Origin: Escherichia coli
GTDB lineage: Bacteria; Pseudomonadota; Gammaproteobacteria; Enterobacterales; Enterobacteriaceae
Assembly (NCBI RefSeq): GCF_003334255.1
Contig: NZ_QOWU01000070.1
Reading direction: 5' to 3' (one strand)
Length of the DNA stretch: 19,728 nucleotides
Shown: positions 545-16,166 of the stretch, in pieces
Position numbering within the stretch: position 1 is the stretch's first letter
How the letters are laid out: the number at the start of each line of letters is the position of its first letter
Program-made: the position numbers and the translations under genes
Notes under the pieces: model-generated
Database searches by the model: none
Told to the model about the DNA's origin: nothing
Seen by the model: the letters and a program-made list of their open reading frames with translations, nothing else

Positions 545-3256
545 CTACATTCCAGGTGATGGTGGCGTCCACTCATTATCCTGAACTGGAGTATAAGATG
601 TGTCATTCCCCCCGGATATGCTTTTCTGTTGCCTGATATATTCGTGGTAGTACTGTTCACTACGCTGACGATGTAAATCCACATCCGGGCGGCTGATTAC
701 AAAGTGTCCATTTCCGGTTATTCCAGCTGCATTATGCCAGGCCACCATTTCCGCAAATACATCATTAAACTGTTGATATGAGCCTTCCGGTTCAAAACCC
801 ATTCCAGGCTCACGATCAAACAATACAGGAGCAATCAGATTCAGCTTATCCACCAGTTCATTTCTGTCCTGATGATGGTAGAACACCACACGGTCCCCAT
901 AATCCACACAGACTAACTCGCCATTCCTCCGATCACGAAAACGCACACTGCCATCTTTCTGCAGACGGGCTTCGAGAACGCCAGTGTCTTCATAAAGTGG
1001 AGTTCCTCCCGGTTCACAGATAATCACGCAGCGGTCGGCATTCGTTGTTCGTCGCTTGTCTTTGCGACGATCACGATAATCCCAGCCACGTAACTGTGAT
1101 ACTGCAGCTCTGTCTCCCTGTACCGCCTGTTGCTCCACCCACTGCCGGTAGGACAAAGGATACCACTTACCCTCCGCAATCAGTGACAACCGCTCTTCCT
1201 TCACACTCTCCTTCAGCCTGATCAGCGCCTGCATACGCTGCACTTCCGCAATATGGTAATGCAGCTTACGCAATTGTGGATCCCGGAACTGCACGCGGAT
1301 ATACGCCTTGCGCCGACGGCAGGCAGCATGAATTTCCCGTAACCGTTCTCCGTAACGTAAGTCGGGTTTACGCCAGTGCTCCTTCCATGCAAGATAACGC
1401 GCGCGCAAATCTTCCCGCGCAGCTGCACGGGCTTCACGGCGTTCACGACGCAGTACAGGATCGCGCCGGAAGCCGGGCTCCACTTCATCGCTGGCAGCAA
1501 GTTCCGGATTGTAGCGACATTCAGGCTTCACCCGTTCAAATATATCTGCACCTGCGATCTCAAATGGCCCTGCCTGCGGCTCAGCCCTGGATAATGTCAA
1601 ATCCGGGTGGATACTGCTGGCCTTCACTGGTGTCAGCTCATGATTAAACGCATCCACAATCACAAGACCATGATGCTGTTTCTGCAACATAAGCCCTTTA
1701 CGCGCAAACATCTCATGGCACGCCTGCCAGCTGAAATTCCCGCCCGCGATCATATCTTCAATCAACGACTCACACTGAACAGTCGTGTACCCCCACAGAC
1801 TTTCCTTATCAGAAAACAGTTCGCGCTTTATTGCTCCCTGTGGACCTGTCCCCATCCGCATACGATACCATTCGTAATCACTGACAGCCCGGGTACCGGT
1901 ACTGTGCCCCCGGAATCGTTCTCCGGGGACGACCTGGGTAAAAATATCCTTCGGTACAGGCTGCCATCCGCCTTCCTGATCCTGCATGTAATCCAGCGTC
2001 ATTAACGGCCACACACTGTCTGCACGTACTGGTGTCTGTTGTTTATCAAATCCATCATGCAGTACCAGATGCCCGTGCTGGATCCCCATCCATAATCCAG
2101 CCTTTGCCAGAGTTCTGTGCACATCCAGGCAACTTTCCAGCTCACCATTTCTCGCCATTTCCGGTAAGCGTTCGGCAAAATGACGGCAGGCGTACTGTTT
2201 CAGACTCTCCGTTTCTGCCACTTTTTCCGGCCGGATATCAACGTTTATCGCTTCCGGATCATAACGACCGGGTGTCCCCACCTGACTGAAAATATCTGTC
2301 GGTACAGGCTGATATTCTCCCAGTTTCCGCCCCAGTCTTTCAGCCGTCCATGACGGGCCGAACGAACTGAGCACAACACCTTCCCGCGATCTGTCCCAGC
2401 CATCCTTCACCACCAGTTCTCCCTCCTGCATCGTGATATACAGACCATCACGGGCCAGCCGTTTATGCAAAGACAACCAGTCCTGGGCGGGTTCTTCACG
2501 CAGCCCGGCAATCGACATCTGCGCAATATATTCCCTGAAGGTCTGCTTTTTCCCGCGTCGCCAGGCATTACGGCGCTCACGTACCAGCGCTGTTTTACGC
2601 ACAATACGGTTGCCCGGTGCATGCACAAAACACCCGTTATCCGGTGCAAATCCGTGCTTAAGTTCAAGTTCACGGCATGCACGACTGAGTTTTTCCTTGC
2701 TCCACGGAAGGCAATTGATATAGCCGGTTTCAGGATGAACACGATTCACTGCAACATGTACATGCAGGTTATCGGTGTCTGTATGAACGGCAGCTACATA
2801 CTGATGTTTTGAAAGTTCAAGGGATTTCAGTGTGTGACGTACGCAGTCAAAAAGCTGCTCAGGACGCGGGCTTTCATGCGCAGGCCAGGAAAGAATGTAG
2901 TGAAAAACAGGGTCTGTATCATCTTTGGAAAAATGAGCAAGGTCTGCTGCTTTCTGCATTTCTTCAGCCGCAGATTCAAGAGACAAACAGTTATGAAAGC
3001 AGGTCACACCATAGAAATTCACCCACTGACTGCCGTCTTCCATTACATCAATCAGGGATACAAATTTTTCGTTACGCAGGCGTGTGGCATAGTCAACAAG
3101 CCGTCTGAAGCGGTTACGGTGCGGGACCTCACCTTTCATTTCCGGGTCTGGTTTGAGTTCATCATCCTGCACATCATCCCGCACAGACGTGTACGCAATC
3201 AGGTCTTCAAAGGAAGACCTTCCGTCACGTCTTTTGGGCGGAATGATAGCATTCAT
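545..3256 (-). CDS. nikB: MOBP-family conjugative relaxase (NikB-like), 903 aa
   Basis: Relaxase histidine motif HTDTDNLHVHVAVNRVHPETG (HxDxxxxHxH type). Size and N-terminus (MNAIIPPKRRDGRSSFEDL) fit my memory of IncI1 R64 NikB (~900 aa). Lies directly downstream of a nikA-like gene and oriT. Confidence 0.88.
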   Translation of the reverse strand: MNAIIPPKRRDGRSSFEDLIAYTSVRDDVQDDELKPDPEMKGEVPHRNRFRRLVDYATRLRNEKFVSLIDVMEDGSQWVNFYGVTCFHNCLSLESAAEEMQKAADLAHFSKDDTDPVFHYILSWPAHESPRPEQLFDCVRHTLKSLELSKHQYVAAVHTDTDNLHVHVAVNRVHPETGYINCLPWSKEKLSRACRELELKHGFAPDNGCFVHAPGNRIVRKTALVRERRNAWRRGKKQTFREYIAQMSIAGLREEPAQDWLSLHKRLARDGLYITMQEGELVVKDGWDRSREGVVLSSFGPSWTAERLGRKLGEYQPVPTDIFSQVGTPGRYDPEAINVDIRPEKVAETESLKQYACRHFAERLPEMARNGELESCLDVHRTLAKAGLWMGIQHGHLVLHDGFDKQQTPVRADSVWPLMTLDYMQDQEGGWQPVPKDIFTQVVPGERFRGHSTGTRAVSDYEWYRMRMGTGPQGAIKRELFSDKESLWGYTTVQCESLIEDMIAGGNFSWQACHEMFARKGLMLQKQHHGLVIVDAFNHELTPVKASSIHPDLTLSRAEPQAGPFEIAGADIFERVKPECRYNPELAASDEVEPGFRRDPVLRRERREARAAAREDLRARYLAWKEHWRKPDLRYGERLREIHAACRRRKAYIRVQFRDPQLRKLHYHIAEVQRMQALIRLKESVKEERLSLIAEGKWYPLSYRQWVEQQAVQGDRAAVSQLRGWDYRDRRKDKRRTTNADRCVIICEPGGTPLYEDTGVLEARLQKDGSVRFRDRRNGELVCVDYGDRVVFYHHQDRNELVDKLNLIAPVLFDREPGMGFEPEGSYQQFNDVFAEMVAWHNAAGITGNGHFVISRPDVDLHRQRSEQYYHEYIRQQKSISGGNDTSYTPVQDNEWTPPSPGM

Positions 3257-3641: not shown

Positions 3642-3700
3642 GGTGGTAATCGTATAGCCGTGCGTGCGCGGTTATACGATTACACATCCTGTCCCGTTTT
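3642..3700 (+). other. oriT: oriT: inverted repeat (arms 3646-3656 / 3673-3683) followed by nick-core-like ACATCCTG TCCCG
   Basis: 11-bp inverted repeat GTAATCGTATA / TATACGATTAC, then 8 bp later ATCCTG (3686-3691) resembling the MOBP nic core (RP4 ATCCTG|C); sits between nikA and the leading region. Nick position 3691|3692 is inferred by analogy only. Confidence 0.6.
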
Positions 3701-4168: not shown

Positions 4169-4212
4169 TGTGACGATGTCACATCGTGTTCTGAGATTAT
4201 GATGATTACAGA

Positions 4213-4249
4213 AAAAAAAGCCCCGGCATAAATACCAGGGCTTTTCTGT
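4213..4249 (-). terminator. Rho-independent terminator for the minus-strand leading-region transcript
   Basis: On the minus strand: stem AAAGCCCTGG / CCGGGGCTTT with one mismatch, followed by a run of 8 T; located just after the stop of the 4254-5102 gene. Confidence 0.7.
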
Positions 4250-4253
4250 TTGA

Positions 4254-5102
4254 TCAGACTCGTGGCGGCAATGCACCAGGATAATGACGTGCAATAATAT
4301 CATTCAGTTTTTCAACAAGGTCAGGACACTTAAAGACAATATGTACGGTCCCTTTCTGGTAGCCACGCACCGTAAAATATTCCCCTTCAAACAACTCACC
4401 GATATTGTCGCCGTTCCCGAGATATTCACCATACTGCGCCCCGATGCTGTTCCTGAAGTCAGGAACGTTGCGTCCCTCCAGCAGATAAAACGGACGTACC
4501 AGGTCATCCAGTGCCTCCCGTCCGCTGCAGTCCAGCGTCACACGCCCGTTACTCCAGCGGTACAGCAGGTTTTCAATAATGATTTTCTTGCCCAGACGGC
4601 AGGGATTATTGGTTCTGTAATCCCATGACAATTTCCGGTAGACATCAATCAGTCCCTGTTCAAATGTCTGCATCTTGCTGGCATTCAGATGGCGAAAAGT
4701 TGCCAGTACATTGTCCAGGGTGATTTCAGGACAGGTGTCGCTCATCAGCTGGCTGTTCCACTCATCACGCTGGCATGAACTCATGAAGGTGTACATCCCC
4801 GTATCCGCCATCAGGCGGTCCCAGATTTTACGGTCGGCAAGACGGGTGATATTCTTTTTTGCTTCTTCCGGTTTATCCATGCATCGAACGGAGTCAGTCA
4901 CGCAGTCTTCAAACCCGTAGAGAAAAATGTCACCAGAAGCATCGAGCAGAATCCTGCGTGCTGTCGCCAGGCATTCCATCGCCTGCATGAACAGTGCAAT
5001 ACCTTCGTTACGCTGCGCGATAATGCGGTCGATGGCCACAGACGGAATAATATCTGTCGTGCCGGCAGTATTCAGGTCAGCAGTGGGTAAAGTCTGATTC
5101 AT
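4254..5102 (-). CDS. Hypothetical protein, first gene of the leading region (possibly DUF4942-like), 282 aa
   Basis: Long ORF; ATG at 5100-5102 with SD GAGGAG 8 nt upstream (the track start is a GTG one codon earlier). No methyltransferase, HExxH or nuclease motif seen by eye. The family assignment is from memory and weak. Confidence 0.75.
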   Translation of the reverse strand: MNQTLPTADLNTAGTTDIIPSVAIDRIIAQRNEGIALFMQAMECLATARRILLDASGDIFLYGFEDCVTDSVRCMDKPEEAKKNITRLADRKIWDRLMADTGMYTFMSSCQRDEWNSQLMSDTCPEITLDNVLATFRHLNASKMQTFEQGLIDVYRKLSWDYRTNNPCRLGKKIIIENLLYRWSNGRVTLDCSGREALDDLVRPFYLLEGRNVPDFRNSIGAQYGEYLGNGDNIGELFEGEYFTVRGYQKGTVHIVFKCPDLVEKLNDIIARHYPGALPPRV

Positions 5103-5152
5103 CACATTGTCTCCTCATCGTCACGACTGCCGGGTCAGCCAGGTCATTTCCC

Positions 5153-5463
5153 GGAGGAGCGAAGCTCCTTCTGCCGTCCGGGTCTTCGGGGATTTCCCCG
5201 CAGTGGACCTTTCCGACGGGGGACGCTCACCACGTCACGGGGCAGTTGTCCGGGGGCAGACGCAAAAGTTTTTGACGCCTGCGGCAAAAAGTTTTGTGGC
5301 TGGTACATCTCTCCCCTGGACGACTGAAACGGGATGTGGTCGTGTATGTACCCCCGGAAAGTCCGTCTGCGGAGAACAGGCCGCAGTGCGGCGGCAGACA
5401 GGCAGAGACAGCTGCGCCATCAGGCGCAGTGGCATTACACACCGTCAGGTGTGCAGGGAGCGC
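5153..5463 (+). promoter_or_regulatory. Structured GC-rich element resembling a single-stranded-DNA promoter (Frpo/ssi type), copy 1
   Basis: No credible coding despite many overlapping ORFs; dense hairpins (GGAGC gaa GCTCC, CGGGGAttTCCCCG, CTGCGCC atca GGCGCAG, CACACC gtca GGTGTG); contains TTGACG inside a hairpin; paralogous to 8317-8626. Confidence 0.6.
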
Positions 5464-5578
5464 CGCATCCGGCGCGACTGAAGAAAAACGACGGCACAAC
5501 AATGGCATGTGGTGGTCACTGGCACACCACTCCCGCACAGGTGAAAACAGAGAAAACCGCACGACATCTGCAATTAAA

Positions 5579-5667
5579 AAAAGTGAAATTTCTTCACTTT
5601 TTCACACTTATTTTTCGCGCTGATTTGGTGATTATGGTGATAAAATAAAGTGAAGTTTTTTCACTTT
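5579..5667 (+). promoter_or_regulatory. Twin operator-like palindromes and promoter upstream of the HTH gene
   Basis: Two copies of AAAGTGAA-N5/6-TTCACTTT (5579-5600 and 5647-5667) flanking an AT-rich -10-like stretch, ending 15 bp before the ATG at 5682. Confidence 0.55.
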
Positions 5668-5681
5668 TTCAAAGGTGTTTT

Positions 5682-5933
5682 ATGACCGGCTGGGAACTGC
5701 GAATCTGGCGAAAAAGCATGCTCTGGTCACGCGAAAAAGCGGCCAGAGAATTTGGCGTGACGCAGAGAACATGGCACGCCTGGGAAAATGCGGAACAGGT
5801 GGATGTCACCGTCTGGAGGACCACCCAGGCACTTTCAGTCCGTGACCTGCTGCCTCACATGCAGGGGATGCGTAAGGCAGATATCATCAGGCGACTGGAA
5901 AATGAACTGGGGGAAACGGCAGAGGATGTGTGA
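5682..5933 (+). CDS. Small helix-turn-helix (XRE-like) DNA-binding protein, 83 aa
   Basis: ATG with AAAGGTG SD; N-terminal segment ELRIWRKSMLWSREKAAREFGVTQRTWHAWEN fits an XRE-type HTH; preceded by the twin palindromes. Confidence 0.65.
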   Translation: MTGWELRIWRKSMLWSREKAAREFGVTQRTWHAWENAEQVDVTVWRTTQALSVRDLLPHMQGMRKADIIRRLENELGETAEDV

Positions 5934-5963
5934 GCGTGATTCACAGCCTGGCTGAATGCCAGG

Positions 5964-6122
5964 CTACTGCTCATCAGGAAACAGCTTTTTCAGTTCTTCA
6001 CCGGAAAGTCCCGTGACCTCCTGAATCCGTTCCGGCGGCCAGCCCATATTCCAAAGCCGGCAGGCTATTTCCCGCGCCACTTCAAGTGCGCCTTTTTGAA
6101 TAAGACGTTCTGCAATCGTCAT
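5964..6122 (-). CDS. Free-standing RpnS-like small protein (paralog of the Rpn C-terminal domain), 52 aa
   Basis: MTIAERLIQKGALEVAREIACRLWNMGWPPERIQEVTGLSGEELKKLF parallels the C-terminal tail of the adjacent Rpn protein; own ATG at 6120-6122 with SD CAGGAG; separated from rpn by a terminator hairpin. Confidence 0.6.
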   Translation of the reverse strand: MTIAERLIQKGALEVAREIACRLWNMGWPPERIQEVTGLSGEELKKLFPDEQ

Positions 6123-6146
6123 GCTGTTTGCTCTGCTCCTGCTGAC

Positions 6147-6172
6147 AAAAAAGCCCGGGATTTTGCCGGGCT
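6147..6172 (-). terminator. Rho-independent terminator immediately after the rpn stop codon
   Basis: Minus strand: stem AGCCCGG / CCGGGCT (6152-6172) followed by TTTTT (6147-6151). Confidence 0.6.
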
Positions 6173-6184
6173 TTGTGGTTCTCA

Positions 6185-7147
6185 TCAGTAAGTGATTTTC
6201 TTCAGTTCGTCATCGGAAAGTCCGGTAGCCTGCTTAATCTGCTCCGGCGTCATCCCCATTTTCTGAAGCTGGCACGCAATAGCCAGGGCTTTTTCAAGCG
6301 CTCCTTCCATGCGTCCTTCCATGCGTCCTTCCATGCGTCCTTCCATCCTGCCTTCCTGGCGACCTTTTTGCTCAAGACGTTCTGCGATAGTCATCAGTTT
6401 ATCCTCATGCTGCGGCAGACGCTCAGCCAGCGCCCGCATAAATTCCGGTGATACAGAGTCCCCTGCGTTAACGATGTAATGAATCAGAACACGCACCTGC
6501 TCGTCTGAAATTTCCACCATGACCTGCGGGAGTTTGTCCAGCAGCTCCATCATGTCACGATGGCGGATATGCTTCATCAGCAGCGTCAGTGCGGCCATCC
6601 GGCGATGGTTCATGATTTCATTGTCATCAACGACAGTGATATCAACCAGCGGAAACGGCTTTGTGTATATTTTAGCCGCAAGTGCCGGATTCTCAAAACA
6701 GTCCAGCCAGTTCATGCTGTACGGGTACGGGCTGCGCTCACCGTGATAGAACAGCACCGGAATCACCAGTGGCAACGTTTTGTGCTGCTCCAGATGTCTC
6801 TGCATCGCCGCCACACTGTAGCGTAACATGCGAAAAGGCATGTACAGATTTTCTGTGCTCTGGTGCTCGATGAGCGTATAAACATAGCCGTCTTCACCCC
6901 CGGTGGTTTTCACGCTCCAGAGGATATCGCTGGCGTACTGATGCAGGTCCGGCTCTACAAAGGTGGCGGGTTCCAGCTTCAGCGTGGACAGGTCGCACAA
7001 CTGCCGGTACTCCGCCGGAAGATGCAGTTCCAGAAAATCTCTGGCGACGTCGGGATTCGCCAGGAACGACCGGAACGCGGCATCATGCGGCGTGGGCGTT
7101 GTGGTGGTTTTCTTCTTACTCACTTTCCCTCCATGAGTTATTATCAC
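6185..7147 (-). CDS. Rpn-family (YhgA-like, PD-(D/E)XK) recombination-promoting nuclease with internal RpnS-like start
   Basis: N-terminus TPHDAAFRSFLANPDVARDFLELHLPAEYRQLCDLSTLKLE and the core ASDILWSV ... YVYTLIEHQS closely parallel E. coli RpnA as I recall it. C-terminal repeat linker and tail are present; an internal ATG at 6392-6394 with SD GAGGA would give a 69-aa C-terminal product. True start may be the GTG at 7121-7123 (SD GGAGGG). Confidence 0.8.
   Translation of the reverse strand: MIITHGGKVSKKKTTTTPTPHDAAFRSFLANPDVARDFLELHLPAEYRQLCDLSTLKLEPATFVEPDLHQYASDILWSVKTTGGEDGYVYTLIEHQSTENLYMPFRMLRYSVAAMQRHLEQHKTLPLVIPVLFYHGERSPYPYSMNWLDCFENPALAAKIYTKPFPLVDITVVDDNEIMNHRRMAALTLLMKHIRHRDMMELLDKLPQVMVEISDEQVRVLIHYIVNAGDSVSPEFMRALAERLPQHEDKLMTIAERLEQKGRQEGRMEGRMEGRMEGRMEGALEKALAIACQLQKMGMTPEQIKQATGLSDDELKKITY
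6302..6349 (-). repeat. In-frame 12-bp tandem repeat (3 perfect + 1 variant unit) encoding (EGRM)n in the Rpn linker
   Basis: Plus-strand unit TCCTTCCATGCG repeated head-to-tail; translates on the minus strand to RMEG repeats (QEGRMEGRMEGRMEGRMEG). Confidence 0.9.
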
Positions 7148-7204
7148 CGGAATTATACGCCCGTGCGGTACGCACCTGCCACGGGCAGAAAGAAGGGAAC
7201 AGAT

Positions 7205-7534
7205 TTACAGTCGTGTATACAGCCCGGTATCCCGGGTAAAAAGCCACTGCAGCTGATCGCAATAAATCCCCTCGTGCTCCGATATCTGCGCTATCCGGGA
7301 ACCCTGTTTGCTGTAAAACGTCACCGTGTAATCATCGGCAAACGTTAATTTGATCCGGACAATATTAATATTATTTTTCGCAAAATATGACGGTAACTGA
7401 AAGCATAAACCGCATTCACCATTATCATCAAAATAAGCCAGATTTTTAGCGCCGGTCATAACAACAAATCGCTGGCTCCCCAGCTGTCCGAGAATTGTTT
7501 GAGCGACATGTTCAGCATAACTCATATTCTTCAT
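7205..7534 (-). CDS. Hypothetical protein, 109 aa
   Basis: ORF in an AT-rich block behind structured element copy 2; weak SD; no recognisable motif. Confidence 0.6.
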   Translation of the reverse strand: MKNMSYAEHVAQTILGQLGSQRFVVMTGAKNLAYFDDNGECGLCFQLPSYFAKNNINIVRIKLTFADDYTVTFYSKQGSRIAQISEHEGIYCDQLQWLFTRDTGLYTRL

Positions 7535-7600
7535 TCTAATATCCTGACGAGAGATATGCCGCAGGAGACACGACTACCTGCGACACTGATAATTGGGGAC

Positions 7601-7918
7601 TCAAGTTCTGTTACGCACAACTGCAAAGAGATATTTTTTCTGGCTTATAACTTTGCATTTTATTAAACGGGCTATTTCCCTGTAGTCTTTATTAAGAGGA
7701 ATATGAATCATGTCCCCGTTCAGTTCATTAAAAACGCACCCTTTTATATATAACGTCTCATTCATGATAAAACCATACATTGAAAAATGCTGATTTTCAT
7801 ACTCTTTACTGATTAAGTGAAAATATCCCTCCAGCAGTTCCTGCGGGGGATGTGGATCAATCATCCAGTTATCACCAATATATGAACATACTTCTGTTAT
7901 CGTTGTCTGAAATGTCAT
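7601..7918 (-). CDS. Hypothetical protein, 105 aa
   Basis: ORF with SD GGGGG 5 nt upstream of the ATG; strongly AT-rich relative to neighbours; no recognisable motif. Confidence 0.65.
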   Translation of the reverse strand: MTFQTTITEVCSYIGDNWMIDPHPPQELLEGYFHLISKEYENQHFSMYGFIMNETLYIKGCVFNELNGDMIHIPLNKDYREIARLIKCKVISQKKYLFAVVRNRT

Positions 7919-7975
7919 GTTACCCCCTGAAGTAAAAACTTATGATGTGAAATGGGGCGTTTCCGCCCCCTGGTA

Positions 7976-8110
7976 TCACATGGCGTAGCCTCTGAGGTGG
8001 TCCAGCCACCAACAGAACTCGTGCCATTCGTCGCCTTTCATTGGCGGAATGCGTGTGGGTTGTCCTTTGACAACCGCATCAGCAAGGGTTACGATTTGTC
8101 TGAGTGACAT
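7976..8110 (-). CDS. Hypothetical small protein, 44 aa (MSLRQIVTLADAVVKGQPTRIPPMKGDEWHEFCWWLDHLRGYAM)
   Basis: ATG at 8108-8110 preceded by AAGGAT; the longer 75-aa ORF in the track would read through the upstream GC hairpin motif. First gene downstream of structured element copy 2. Confidence 0.5.
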   Translation of the reverse strand: MSLRQIVTLADAVVKGQPTRIPPMKGDEWHEFCWWLDHLRGYAM

Positions 8111-8316
8111 AATCAATATCCTTACAAAGGTTGTTGATATCCGTGCAAAGGGGTGTTCCCGCCCCCCTGGCACACCCACTAACCTCCTTTTCCTTCCCGG
8201 CATTCCCTCACGCTGTGCGTGATTTACATCGTTCTCACCTCCTTCACTGGGTTGTTTCTGTTCGCTAAAAAATGGTCAGGTTGTTAAAGAGCGGCACGGT
8301 ATGTTCAGGCATCTTC

Positions 8317-8626
8317 ACAGGAGCGAAGCTCCTTCTGCCGTCCACTTCTTCGGGGTTTCTCCCGCTGTGGACCTTTCCGATGGGGGCCCGTTTACCGCCT
8401 CACGGGACAGCTGTCCGGGGGCGGACGCAAAATTTTTAGCCGGGTTCATGGCTAAAAATTTTGTGGCCGGTGCATCTCACCCTGGACAGATGGAACGGGA
8501 GGGGGTTACGTCTGCCCCCCGGAAAGTCCACAGCGGGAAACAGGCCGCAGGGGTGGCGGCAGGAGGGAGGACTGCTGCGCCATCAGGCGCAGTTTCCTCA
8601 CACACCGTCAGGTGTGCAGGGAGCGC
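8317..8626 (+). promoter_or_regulatory. Structured GC-rich element resembling a single-stranded-DNA promoter (Frpo/ssi type), copy 2
   Basis: Shares blocks with copy 1 (GGAGCGAAGCTCCTTCTGCCGTCC, GTGGACCTTTCCGA, GTCCGGGGGC-GACGCAAAA, CCCGGAAAGTCC, CTGCGCCATCAGGCGCAGT, ACACACCGTCAGGTGTGCAGGGAGCGC). Contains a perfect 14-bp hairpin CAAAATTTTTAGCC / GGCTAAAAATTTTG (8428-8463). Confidence 0.6.
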
Positions 8627-9015
8627 AGGTCACGGCGCGACAGGGGCGGCGCGACCGGAACGGTCGCTGCAAGCCGGGTTTTCACGCATCGGACCGTAGC
8701 GGCAGCCCGAAACCGCGCCAGCGGGTTCGGCGGAGACTGGCGGGTGCGCCAGCAGCTGCCCGTCGGAGTCGGGCCTGACGACCGGATGCCGCCAGGCAGC
8801 CGGGAGCCGAAGTGGGCGCAATAAAAGACAGCCAGAAACGGTGACAGTGTCACGGAATATCACTCCTGTTCCCTGCATACAGCCATACACTACCTTCTGA
8901 CCGGAAAGCCGGGCCGGCAGCGCCGCAGGCGCTGCACCCCGCGTTTCCGGCAGGCGTCAGCCTGCCTGGGGTTTTCGCGCGGGCTGACAGGCGGCCTCCA
9001 CCGCCTGCCCCTGTA

Positions 9016-9207
9016 TCACCTGTTTCTGCTGCCCTGAAGGATGTAGTGACCGCCCAGGAAAACCGCCTGCTGATTCGCCACAAAATCGCAGATTTCATCA
9101 ACAATCTGCGCGGTGGTGAGCGGTTTCTGCCCCATTTCACGACGCCGCGCATTAATCACGGCCCTGTAATTACGCAGAATTTCGCGGGTTTCTGTGCTGA
9201 TATTCAT
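9016..9207 (-). CDS. Hypothetical small protein, 63 aa, translationally coupled to the upstream gene
   Basis: ATG overlaps the stop of the 9204-9626 gene (ATGA). Confidence 0.6.
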   Translation of the reverse strand: MNISTETREILRNYRAVINARRREMGQKPLTTAQIVDEICDFVANQQAVFLGGHYILQGSRNR

Positions 9208-9672: not shown

Positions 9673-10098
9673 TCAGTCAAGTGCAGCGTAAATCGCGTTG
9701 CATTCGGGGTGAAATTCGATGTGGCTCCACAACTGCGCATCGCGCATCCTGTACAGGTGTGTCAACCCTGCATCCCCGCTGTCGTGGTACAGCCACAACT
9801 GGCGGTTAATCACAAGGGAAGTCAAAATGATGCCTGCGGCATCAGCACTCACGGTACGGTCAAACCAGTTTTCACCGTTGACCAGATGAAAACGGTCGCC
9901 ATCCGGCATCATGTAACCGCCACCGTCCGGCAGGCGGATGAAGTGCCAGAATCCGCCTTCATATTCCGGCATCATTTTTTTCGCCAGCGCGTATACAGAC
10001 GCTTCGGCATACAGAAAATCCAGGCCAAACAGGTAAGGCAGAAAAGACAGACGGTCGCACTCTTCAACGTTCAGAGTGACAGGTTTCGCATACTGCAT
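9673..10098 (-). CDS. ArdB/KlcA-family antirestriction-like protein, 141 aa
   Basis: Start MQYAKPVTL with SD GGAGG 6 nt upstream (the track ORF begins earlier at 10179). Motifs FLPYLFG, EGGFWHFIRLPDGGGYMMPDGD and SADAAGIILT match my recollection of the KlcA/ArdB/YfjX family. Confidence 0.7.
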   Translation of the reverse strand: MQYAKPVTLNVEECDRLSFLPYLFGLDFLYAEASVYALAKKMMPEYEGGFWHFIRLPDGGGYMMPDGDRFHLVNGENWFDRTVSADAAGIILTSLVINRQLWLYHDSGDAGLTHLYRMRDAQLWSHIEFHPECNAIYAALD

Positions 10099-10140
10099 GG
10101 GATTTCCTCCGTTGTTCACATATTCCGCGACACCGGGCGG

Positions 10141-10364
10141 TGCCGTGCCTCCATCTTTGCCGGGCCTGCAGGGTTGCAAGGGCGCAAGGGAAGCCGCAGC
10201 CTGACGCGCACGGCTGACGGGAGTTGGAGGGTGAGACCGCGAAATCTGAGCGGGTGAACGACCGGAAAATCACGGCAGACGGGAAGGAGGGACCGGGTGA
10301 CCGCAGCGGTTCACCTTACCTTGCAACCCGCCCGCAGAAGCCCGGCTACGATGGAGGCACGGCA
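10141..10364 (+). promoter_or_regulatory. Long imperfect hairpin (about 225 bp) upstream of the klcA-like operon; possible third ssDNA promoter/ssi element
   Basis: Outer arms TGCCGTGCCTCCATC (10141-10155) and GATGGAGGCACGGCA (10350-10364) are exact reverse complements; inner arms GCCGGGC...GGTTGCAAGG / CCTTGCAACC...GCCCGGC also pair; nested palindromes CGGGTGAACGACCGG and GGTGACCGCAGCGGTTCACC. Confidence 0.5.
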
Positions 10365-10511
10365 CAGCCCGCACACGACGCTGAGGCCACATAACTGAAA
10401 ACCCACAAGGCCATGCCCCGCATGGCCGGGTAAAGCGGAGCCTGCGGCGACATCCTTTTGCTCTTTCCGGGGACCGGCTGGAAAAGGCGGAGATTTTCCC
10501 CGCCAGCGTCA

Positions 10512-11114: not shown

Positions 11115-11756
11115 TTGATAAGTAACGTCCGGAAAAACTTCAGCGTCATTCTTGAGCGTACGGTACGCGAACTCAACGGCGAGTCCTGCATATCCCTGGA
11201 AGAAGCACCACCGGCAAAACAACAGATTGTCTGTAGTCGCAGTTTTGGTGAACGAATCACAGACAAAGATGCCATGCACCAGGCTGTTGTTCAGTATGCA
11301 GAGCGGGCCGCAGAGAAACTACGTGGGGAGCGTCAGTATTGCCGGCAGGTGACGACATTTGTACGGACATCCCCCTTTGCAGTAAAAGAACCCTGTTACA
11401 GCAATGCCGCTGTGGAAAAGCTTTCATTGCCCACACAGGACAGCCGGGACATTATTGCCGCCGCATGCAGAGCCTTAAACCATGTCTGGCGTGAAGGGTA
11501 CCGCTATATGAAGGCAGGAGTCATGCTGGCTGATTTCACTCCATCGGGTATAGCGCAGCCGGGATTATTTGATGAAATCCAGCCCCGTAAAAACAGTGAA
11601 AAGTTAATGAAAACACTCGATGAACTGAACCAGTCGGGAAAAGGGAAAGTGTGGTTTGCGGGGCGAGGAACCGCCCCTGAATGGCAAATGAAACAGGAAA
11701 TGCTATCGCCTTCGTATACAACACAATGGACTGAGATCCCCATTGCTTCATTCTGA
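11115..11756 (+). pseudogene. impB: impB/umuC/mucB-family error-prone polymerase gene, 3' half only
   Basis: [13 protein letters not shown] ... [11 protein letters not shown] ... TTFVRTSPFA ... PTQDSRDIIAAA ... YMKAGVMLADF ... LFDE ... WQMKQEMLSPSYTT aligns to the C-terminal ~210 residues of MucB/UmuC as I recall them. An in-frame TGA at 11109-11111 and non-homologous sequence upstream show the N-terminal half, and any impA/impC, are missing. Confidence 0.85.
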
Positions 11757-15929: not shown

Positions 15930-16036
15930 GACAGGAGGTGGCGTTATGTGGGGGGAGAGGAAGATCCTGAACTGCCGGAAACCGGATCTGCGCGGCGGGG
16001 AACGGGCATGAAATATGATAATTAAGCAACATACAC

Positions 16037-16130
16037 AAAATCATATCAGATATGATTTTTATCATTTATGGTAAATCATATCTGATATTATAAGAATTCA
16101 ATAACCAATAAATCATATATAATATGATTT
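16037..16130. promoter_or_regulatory. Three operator-like palindromes AAATCATAT-N1-3-ATATGATTT upstream of the 16167 operon
   Basis: Perfect palindromes at 16037-16059 (11-bp arms) and 16110-16130 (9-bp arms); a degenerate copy at 16074-16090; all in an AT-rich stretch ending ~35 bp before the ATG at 16167. Confidence 0.55.
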
Positions 16131-16166
16131 TTACCTGTCAGAACATTATCAGATGGAGTGTGCAGG

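Follow-up and report, generated by a model that had tools for sequence, protein, structure and literature searches.

Within a 19,728-nucleotide (nt) stretch of Escherichia coli DNA (contig NZ_QOWU01000070.1 of assembly GCF_003334255.1; the whole stretch is called the window below), two homologous, GC-rich intergenic elements, referred to as copy 1 and copy 2 (Table 1), are very probably class 1 single-stranded DNA (ssDNA) promoters of the ssi/Frpo family (ssp1), with copy 1 corresponding to ssi1 of plasmid ColIb-P9 and copy 2 being a recombinant that joins an ssi3 core to an ssi2 left edge. The family has been validated experimentally in the plasmids ColIb-P9, F, and pESBL. The window itself represents, in an E. 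coli plasmid of the IncI complex (IncK2/Z-like), the origin of transfer (oriT) and the leading region, where such promoters would serve the genes that are expressed early after entry into a recipient.

The identification is carried first of all by homology. We compared both elements by BLAST with the reference ssi and Frpo sequences of Samuel et al. 2024 (PMC11541004, Supplementary Table 2). Copy 1 agrees with ColIb-P9 ssi1, listed there as "ColIb P-9 Frpo1," at 326 of 329 positions (99.1% identity over 329 nt), and copy 2 shares 96.7% identity over 331 nt with ColIb-P9 ssi3 and 86.9% with ColIb-P9 ssi2, while ssiD (Frpo) and Frpo2 of the F plasmid match both copies in the central ∼80 to 116 nt only, at 74 to 80% identity. 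The two copies have the same orientation and show 87% mean column identity in a pairwise alignment, and BLAST with ColIb-P9 ssi1 and ssi3 on both copies gives ∼80% between the two types. Repeat finding and a covariance model of the core agree on exactly two copies, the covariance-model search of the core detecting no third one in the window. The copy 1 core is found at ≥99% identity in at least 1516 PLSDB records; these are very common elements that already carry names. With respect to coding, the indels that separate the copies measure 1, 1, 1, 1, 2, 1, 1, 1, 1, and 2 nt, so that no reading frame is kept and the elements are noncoding; the RefSeq records of pECOED and R64 likewise have no coding sequence over them. 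An initial annotation, made from the letters alone, had described two paralogous elements in the same orientation with shared conserved blocks and no credible coding, had likened them to Frpo/ssi, and had proposed alignment with the ColIb-P9 and F sequences as a check; all of this is confirmed by the comparison, at 80 to 87% identity between the copies. Two of its details need amending. The limits it gave, 5153-5463 and 8317-8626, delineate real elements but, judged by homology, end ∼17 nt too early on the right and so lose the last small hairpin, and copy 2, homologous to copy 1 as it is, is not its plain paralogue but an ssi2/ssi3 recombinant. We also observed that GenBank record CP088867.1 annotates "hypothetical proteins" at 9933-10235, over ssi1, and at 19821-20135, over an extension that adjoins ssi3; these are probably spurious calls of open reading frames (ORFs) in GC-rich structured DNA and are absent in the RefSeq records of relatives.

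The position of the elements relative to oriT fits the same assignment. A megablast search with 4200-9200 matched at least 5000 enterobacterial plasmids, and among the matches listed the closest full-length ones are E. coli plasmids typed IncK2/Z, MOBP, and MPF_I, for example pECOED. The gene order in the window reads nikB (545-3256, minus strand), nikA, oriT, a small plus-strand gene, the DUF4942 gene (minus), copy 1, a helix-turn-helix (HTH) gene (plus), a minus-strand block with an Rpn nuclease, and copy 2, which is the layout of the R64/ColIb-P9 leading region, at ∼82% identity to R64, and also the order in IncK2/Z plasmids. An R64-type nick region occupies 3684-3692 on the plus strand, and a sequence comparison shows that R64 oriT carries the identical nick region, ACATCCTGTCCCGTT. 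We take the nick to follow ATCCTG and the nicked strand to enter the recipient 5′ end first, as is known of the MOBP relaxases of R64 and RP4 (Furuya and Komano 1991, as cited in PMC3817090); by this rule the plus strand would be cut between 3691 and 3692. Because the R64-type nick region lies on the plus strand, and given the published R64/RP4 polarity, the plus strand is assigned as the transferred strand; it follows that the DNA to the right of oriT is the leading region and that the minus-strand genes use the transferred strand as template. Copy 1 starts 1.5 kb and copy 2 4.6 kb 3′ of the nick, and each stands directly upstream of minus-strand genes, as had been noticed in the initial annotation: copy 1 precedes the DUF4942 gene, and copy 2 precedes the block listed in Table 1. 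As a separate observation, the imperfect inverted repeat of this oriT (GTAATCGTATAGCC/GGTTATACGATTAC) differs in sequence from that of R64 despite the R64-identical nick region, a difference probably tied to NikA specificity in the IncK/B/O/Z group.

Experimental knowledge of the homologues bears on what the elements may do. Frpo (ssiD) of the F plasmid is reportedly treated by Masai and Arai in 1997 and ssi1 of ColIb-P9 by Bates et al. in 1999, and ssi3 of ColIb-P9 is said by Nasim et al. in 2004 to be the promoter of the ssb-psiB-psiA operon. In the summaries that later papers give, Frpo is both a single-strand promoter and a source of primers in vitro. In vivo, Frpo1 and Frpo2 of F are required for early expression (Couturier et al. 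2023, PMC9849209), and in pESBL, an IncI1 plasmid, the operons headed by ssi1-3 belong to the six with induction in transconjugants, of up to ∼500-fold, their start sites being mapped by 5′ rapid amplification of cDNA ends; the family is named class 1 in that study (Wen et al. 2025, PMC12672017). In the window, a linear σ70 scan across either element and its flanks, including the DNA between each element and its genes, found no consensus promoter, and this absence of a consensus double-strand promoter fits the ssDNA-promoter model. The same body of evidence bears on the proposal that the elements are signals for priming the complementary strand and nothing else, which is the original sense of "ssi," with the genes being expressed from other promoters. 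The family was originally discovered as single-strand initiation signals; in vitro, DNA synthesis is primed by Frpo transcripts, and according to a 2026 preprint, class 1 transcripts prime the conversion to double-stranded DNA in vivo (bioRxiv 10.64898/2026.01.09.698686). The two roles are compatible, however, in that one transcript can do both, and the expression data on the homologues fit a restriction to priming less well, as the mapped start sites of pESBL ssi1-3 head strongly induced operons. Together with the lack of a consensus promoter ahead of the genes here, and with the failure of ssiE, the other F ssi sequence in the table of Samuel et al., to match the window at E ≤ 0.01 in BLAST, this makes a role confined to priming improbable.

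We next turn to the predicted structure, for which folding was done with DNA energies and z scores were taken from 100 shuffles. The plus strand of copy 1 folds at −100.1 kcal/mol (z = −9.0; 0/100 shuffles as good) and that of copy 2 at −111.4 kcal/mol (z = −13.2; 0/100), compared with −82.4 and −95.7 kcal/mol for the respective complements. In the predicted fold, each element consists of one ∼230-nt imperfect hairpin, closed by a basal stem, together with one 5′ mini-hairpin and three small 3′ hairpins. The folding of the plus strand that had been suggested as a check thus yields the long hairpin expected, and the earlier description of the elements as packed with short hairpins is only roughly right, the bulk of each being a single long one. 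In copy 1, the conserved stem pairs GTCCGGGGG (5248-5256) with CCCCTGGAC (5313-5321) and contains one invariant G·T wobble; above it, the A/T-rich apical stem joins 5257-5277 to 5282-5302 around the loop CCTG (5278-5281), and below it lies a 3×3 internal loop (5240-5242/5327-5329). In copy 2, 8413-8421 is joined to 8480-8487 in the conserved stem and 8422-8441 to 8450-8469 in the apical stem, around the loop GGGTTCAT (8442-8449), and the 10-nt bulge reads GTGCATCTCA (8470-8479). The hybrid copy 2 still folds and is the most stable of the family members compared.

To evaluate selection on this structure, a family alignment of 13 IncI-type elements, 12 of them distinct, was used. Its consensus comprises 101 pairs with 99.0% of cells paired and ten pairs with compensatory changes, and the covariation score of 0.108 compares with 0.062 after shuffling (0/500 as high) and with at most 0.043 when partners are slid. 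Pair 8-17 of the mini-hairpin covaries between A-T and G-C across the family; the three small 3′ hairpins give little covariation evidence because they are almost invariant. Since the aligned sequences are close relatives, we regard the covariation as moderate evidence. Two G·T wobbles are invariant in the alignment, the transferred strand folds 12 to 19 kcal/mol better than its complement in 13/13 members, and the covariance model scores copy 1 at 104.9 bits on the plus strand versus 30.4 on the minus strand and copy 2 at 109.7 versus 42.3 bits, all of which identify the plus strand as the folded one. Furthermore, in a core alignment extended to IncF versions from F, Klebsiella, and Salmonella, the motif G-T-n-y-A-T-y-T of the unpaired bulge is invariant across IncI and IncF cores, and the conservation of this octamer without pairing suggests that a protein recognizes it. 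A scan of a genome collection for distant relatives with the pattern TGTCCGGGGN{30,60}CCCTGGAC was discarded as unspecific: the loci are chance matches in GC-rich genomes, and 0 match known Frpo/ssi sequences by BLAST.

These observations also speak to the idea that the elements are inert repeated intergenic DNA, that is, recombination scars or selfish repeats whose hairpins are a by-product of GC-rich palindromes. The repeats do recombine and are mosaic, and copy 2 is itself a recombination joint. Inert DNA is nevertheless hard to reconcile with compensatory changes that keep 99% of cells paired, with the strand-specific gain in folding energy in every member, with the invariant wobbles and an unpaired octamer common to F, and with the fixed way in which the elements are placed and oriented with respect to oriT and the downstream genes across IncI and IncF plasmids, so that we give this idea very little credence. 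Least credible of all is an action of the structure as RNA, either as a plus-sense noncoding RNA or as a leader or terminator in leftward transcripts: the left third of each element would be transcribed as leader of the downstream genes and a plus-sense RNA would retain the same G·U pairs, but the whole window yields no Rfam family at gathering thresholds, the linear σ70 scan of the elements and flanks revealed no rightward promoter, transcripts that run leftward are complementary to the plus strand and hence of the weaker-folding sense, and published experiments locate the activity in single-stranded DNA.

If the elements are ssDNA promoters, as we favor, the question arises which bases take the place of the promoter boxes. 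The initial annotation had pointed to a −35-like hexamer, TTGACG, inside a hairpin of copy 1. The hexamer is present in the hairpin, at 5272-5277 of the plus strand, where it forms part of the 5′ arm of the apical stem with its last base adjoining the apical loop, but it is implausible as a −35 element, because, on the 5′ arm, it runs up to the apical loop and leaves no room for a −10 element further along the stem. Nor is it conserved, being TAGCCG in copy 2 and TTGCCG in ColIb-P9 ssi2 and ssi3. Its last T covaries with its partner (pair 126-141, seen as T-A, A-T, or T·T) and thus is kept for pairing rather than for a promoter. In a relaxed scan, the 3′ arms yielded candidate −35/−10 pairs in two registers (Table 1). 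We lean to register 1, made up of a hexamer at the apex and one in the bulge, because its 16- to 17-nt spacing is present in all experimentally supported members and because the bulge would offer a ready-melted non-template strand; the bulge hexamer of copy 1, TACATC (5304-5309), is accordingly a candidate single-stranded −10-like element. The conserved TGGACA, which matches TTGACA at 5/6 positions, was also tried as a −35 element and dropped, since F ssiD and Frpo2, which both have experimental support, differ by 3 nt in how far it stands from any −10-like hexamer.

The origin of copy 2 can be traced in its flanks. The segment downstream of it, 7140-8290 (1.15 kb), occurs in 9 PLSDB records only, one of which, the IncK2/Z plasmid pA16EC0070-1 (CP088867.1), has the full leading region in the order ssi1, Rpn block, ssi2, ardA, psiA, a gap where R64 has psiB, a parB-like gene, DUF905, ssb, ssi3, DUF1380, and a klcA-like gene. 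In a three-way alignment with this plasmid, we counted the informative sites that agree with its ssi2 locus or its ssi3 locus. Left of 8314, 249 sites are of the ssi2 type and 5 of the ssi3 type; sites within 8315-8387 are mixed, marking a crossover zone; from 8388 to 8643 the counts are 0 and 45; and right of 8813 they are 12 and 323. Moreover, the hybrid alone has T·G at basal pair 21-255, its T being derived from the ssi2 side and its G from the ssi3 side. The switch of informative sites and the mixed basal pair point to recombination between ssi2 and ssi3 with loss of ∼6.3 kb, and it is well supported that copy 2 is an ssi2 × ssi3 recombinant with its crossover within 8315-8387, which arose by homologous recombination between the two direct repeats. 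The lost ∼6.3 kb included ardA, psiA, psiB, the parB-like gene, and ssb; the ssi2 operon now has the ssi3 core in front of it. Downstream of copy 2 there is no ssb, psiB, psiA, or ardA; since it lacks an ssb operon below it, copy 2 is ssi3 by core sequence and not by context. pECOED and several other E. coli plasmids carry the same joint, and mosaicism is wider in the family alignment, as in pA16EC0070-1, whose ssi2 has an ssi1-type apex.

Directly upstream of copy 2 lies a GC-rich extension of ∼170 nt (Table 1). The extension is almost exactly shared by ssi2 and ssi3, with hairpins such as GCGACCG-GAA-CGGTCGC in it; folding of 8644-9020 gives z = −3.0, and the published candidates Frpo'6 and Frpo*5-7 (PMC11541004) have the same motifs at their right ends. 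Frpo repeats have been noted as recombination substrates (Couturier et al., PMC9849209), and the ssi3 operon was repeatedly inactivated or lost in experimental evolution, with host-specific gains in transfer (Benz and Hall, PMC10104558). The recombinant nature of copy 2 is a new detail for this plasmid, but a comparable hybrid was published in 2013. It is tempting to speculate that the ssi repeats may also be built-in recombination joints for shedding or swapping establishment operons, and that the hybrid is a selected state that rewires the strong ssi3 core onto the Rpn block, and not an accidental scar. That several independent E. coli plasmids, of human and pig origin, have the same joint is compatible with this idea, as is the repeated inactivation of the ssi3 operon in experimental evolution (PMC10104558). 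We nevertheless consider it unlikely, and that the joint has been selected, or the repeats adapted for it, is speculation. A second deletion joint relative to R64 was observed at 11128/11129, where homology jumps from R64 position 53442 to 48858; missing at this joint, which is common to several other E. coli plasmids, are a DNA methylase, DUF1281, dinI, umuD, and part of umuC.

Putting these elements together, we envisage the following sequence of events. The relaxase would nick the plus strand at ∼3691/3692, and the strand would enter the recipient 5′ end first, with copy 1 following at ∼1.5 kb and copy 2 at ∼4.6 kb from the 5′ end. Before the complement is made, each element is predicted to fold on itself into the long imperfect hairpin, consistent with the covariation and the strand asymmetry. 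By homology, σ70 RNA polymerase would then read the hairpin as a promoter and transcribe leftward from the plus-strand template, with the start likely to lie in or just below the GTCCGGGGG/CCCCTGGAC stem (template ∼5238-5252 in copy 1 and ∼8403-8417 in copy 2). To judge from the homologues, this would give a short burst of expression of the DUF4942 protein from copy 1 and, from copy 2, of the Rpn-nuclease block; these transcripts could also prime synthesis of the complementary strand, and conversion to duplex would remove the hairpin and switch the promoter off.

Several points weigh against this assignment and should temper it. The experiments concern homologues throughout, none of them this particular plasmid. 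The choice of transferred strand rests on a nick-site motif combined with published knowledge. The family alignment is made up of close relatives and mosaics, so its covariation counts include inherited changes. The candidate −35/−10 pairs of both registers match at most 7/12 consensus bases. Finally, the hybrid copy 2, a putative promoter, has an intact core but a basal stem that mixes two parents.

Table 1. Positions of the elements, their predicted parts, and the neighboring genes in the window
Feature	Position	Strand	Basis or remark
oriT core	3646..3692	+	Imperfect inverted repeat GTAATCGTATAGCC...GGTTATACGATTAC, then nick region ACATCCTG/T (slash, putative nick)
DUF4942 gene	4254..5102	-	Pfam DUF4942, E = 1.3e-49; PHROG "DNA methyltransferase," E = 5.5e-19
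Copy 1, ssi1 homologue, probable class 1 ssDNA promoter	5152..5480	+	326/329 identity to ColIb-P9 ssi1; fold; covariance model
5′ mini-hairpin of copy 1, GGAGCGAAGCTCC, GCGAAGC core	5156..5168	+	Fold; within the putative transcribed leader
Central hairpin of copy 1	5204..5365	+	Predicted fold
10-nt bulge of copy 1, GTACATCTCT	5303..5312	+	Fold; 3′ arm only, directly above conserved stem
Small 3′ (upstream-side) hairpins of copy 1	5412-5429, 5438-5453, 5460-5475	+	Fold
Register 1 of copy 1 (candidate)	GCGGCA (5281-5286), 17 nt, TACATC (5304-5309, bulge)	+	Relaxed scan
Register 2 of copy 1 (candidate)	TTGTGG (5294-5299), 17 nt, TGGACG (5317-5322, conserved stem)	+	Relaxed scan
Gene block below copy 2	5964..8203	-	ORF list; annotation of pECOED and pA16EC0070-1
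73-amino-acid (aa) Rpn C-terminal-like ORF	5964-6185	-	Copy 2 block
Rpn-family nuclease	6185-7147	-	Copy 2 block
109-aa ORF	7205-7534	-	Copy 2 block
105-aa ORF	7601-7918	-	Copy 2 block
Small ORF	7976-8203, or shorter from ATG at 8110	-	Copy 2 block
Copy 2, ssi2/ssi3 hybrid, probable class 1 ssDNA promoter	8315..8643	+	Identity to ColIb-P9 ssi3/ssi2; fold; covariance model
Central hairpin of copy 2	8360..8538	+	Predicted fold
Register 1 of copy 2 (candidate)	TGGCTA (8449-8454), 16 nt, TGCATC (8471-8476, bulge)	+	Relaxed scan
Register 2 of copy 2 (candidate)	TTGTGG (8461-8466), 16 nt, TGGACA (8483-8488, conserved stem)	+	Relaxed scan
GC-rich extension, ∼170 nt	8644..8812	+	Common to ssi2 and ssi3, absent from ssi1; upstream of promoter

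With respect to the genes that the elements would serve, the DUF4942 gene begins with an ATG at 5102 preceded by a GAGGAG Shine-Dalgarno sequence (5111-5116), and 50 nt separate this ATG from the edge of copy 1. It would be the sole gene driven by copy 1, and the gene order around the two is the same in R64 and pECOED. For the small ORFs downstream of copy 2, NCBIfam returned nothing. The minus-strand leader below copy 2 carries a strong Shine-Dalgarno sequence, AAGGAGGTGA (8244-8235), followed by ATG-TAA (8229-8224), a start-stop mini-ORF that is also present below ssi2 of pA16EC0070-1.

Three further features of the window were observed. A hairpin of the class 2 type (ssp2, "Frpo3") lies at ∼10127-10457 on the plus strand, upstream of a klcA-like antirestriction gene (9673-10098, minus strand); it shares 88.6% identity with the R64 region upstream of ardA and 79% with candidate Frpo'4 of Samuel et al. 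and folds at −92.8 kcal/mol (z = −4.3). Direct repeats of 42 nt (5573-5614 and 5640-5681), each with the palindrome AAAGTGAAnTTTnTTCACTTT, stand just upstream of the plus-strand HTH regulator gene (5682-5933) and probably serve as operators of this gene. AT-rich direct repeats of 49 nt (16013-16061 and 16085-16133), 72 nt apart and 73% identical, may be iteron-like or operator-like.

Elements of this kind explain how anti-defence and establishment genes are expressed within minutes of entry, before the second strand is made, which is relevant to the spread of antibiotic resistance. As known members of a well-studied family, the two elements leave the understanding of that family unchanged, and the value for the window is mainly one of annotation: they fix the transferred strand and the leading region, they identify three early operons, two of them under class 1 promoters and the third under a class 2 promoter, and they reveal a plasmid lineage from which recombination between two of the promoters removed the classical ardA/psiB/ssb module.

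Compared with known systems, copy 1 is closest to ssi1 of ColIb-P9/R64, with which it shares its 329-nt length, its fold, and its site between the DUF4942 gene and the HTH gene near oriT; it differs by three substitutions and by its IncK2/Z-like backbone, the flanking genes being ∼82% identical to those of R64. Copy 2 is of the ssi3 type of ColIb-P9/R64 from ∼8388 rightward, through the apical stem, the bulge, the conserved stem, the 3′ hairpins, and the upstream flank, while its first ∼70 nt have a mixed character and ssi2-type DNA follows downstream. Unlike ColIb-P9 ssi3, it is chimeric, has lost the ssb-parB-psiB-psiA-ardA block, and has its core at the head of the ssi2 operon. In addition, its apical TAGCC/GGCTA forms a perfect pair where ColIb-P9 ssi3 has a T·T mismatch, and ssi3 of pA16EC0070-1 has the copy 2 variant. 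With Frpo (ssiD, Frpo1) and Frpo2 of F, both copies share the GTCCGGGGG/CCCCTGGAC stem with its G·T wobble, the 3′-arm bulge with GTnyATyT, and the A/T-rich apical stem, and role and orientation relative to oriT match as well, whereas the basal stem and flanking hairpins are unrelated and the relaxase is MOBF in F and MOBP here. The long transferred-strand hairpin upstream of early genes is also a trait of the class 2 (ssp2, "Frpo3") and class 3 promoters of pESBL and F (Wen et al. 2025, PMC12672017), which have no sequence similarity to copies 1 and 2. For the hybrid, the nearest precedent is the hybrid Frpo repeat of pO111-CRL115 (Venturini et al. 2013, PMC3817090), again in an IncI-family plasmid with a leading-region block missing and one repeat formed from two. 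The partners there were R1 and R3, with 9.7 kb missing, compared with ssi2 and ssi3 and ∼6.3 kb here, and while those authors favored insertion of a mobile module (PMC3817090), the intact close relative pA16EC0070-1 indicates a deletion rather than an insertion in the present case.

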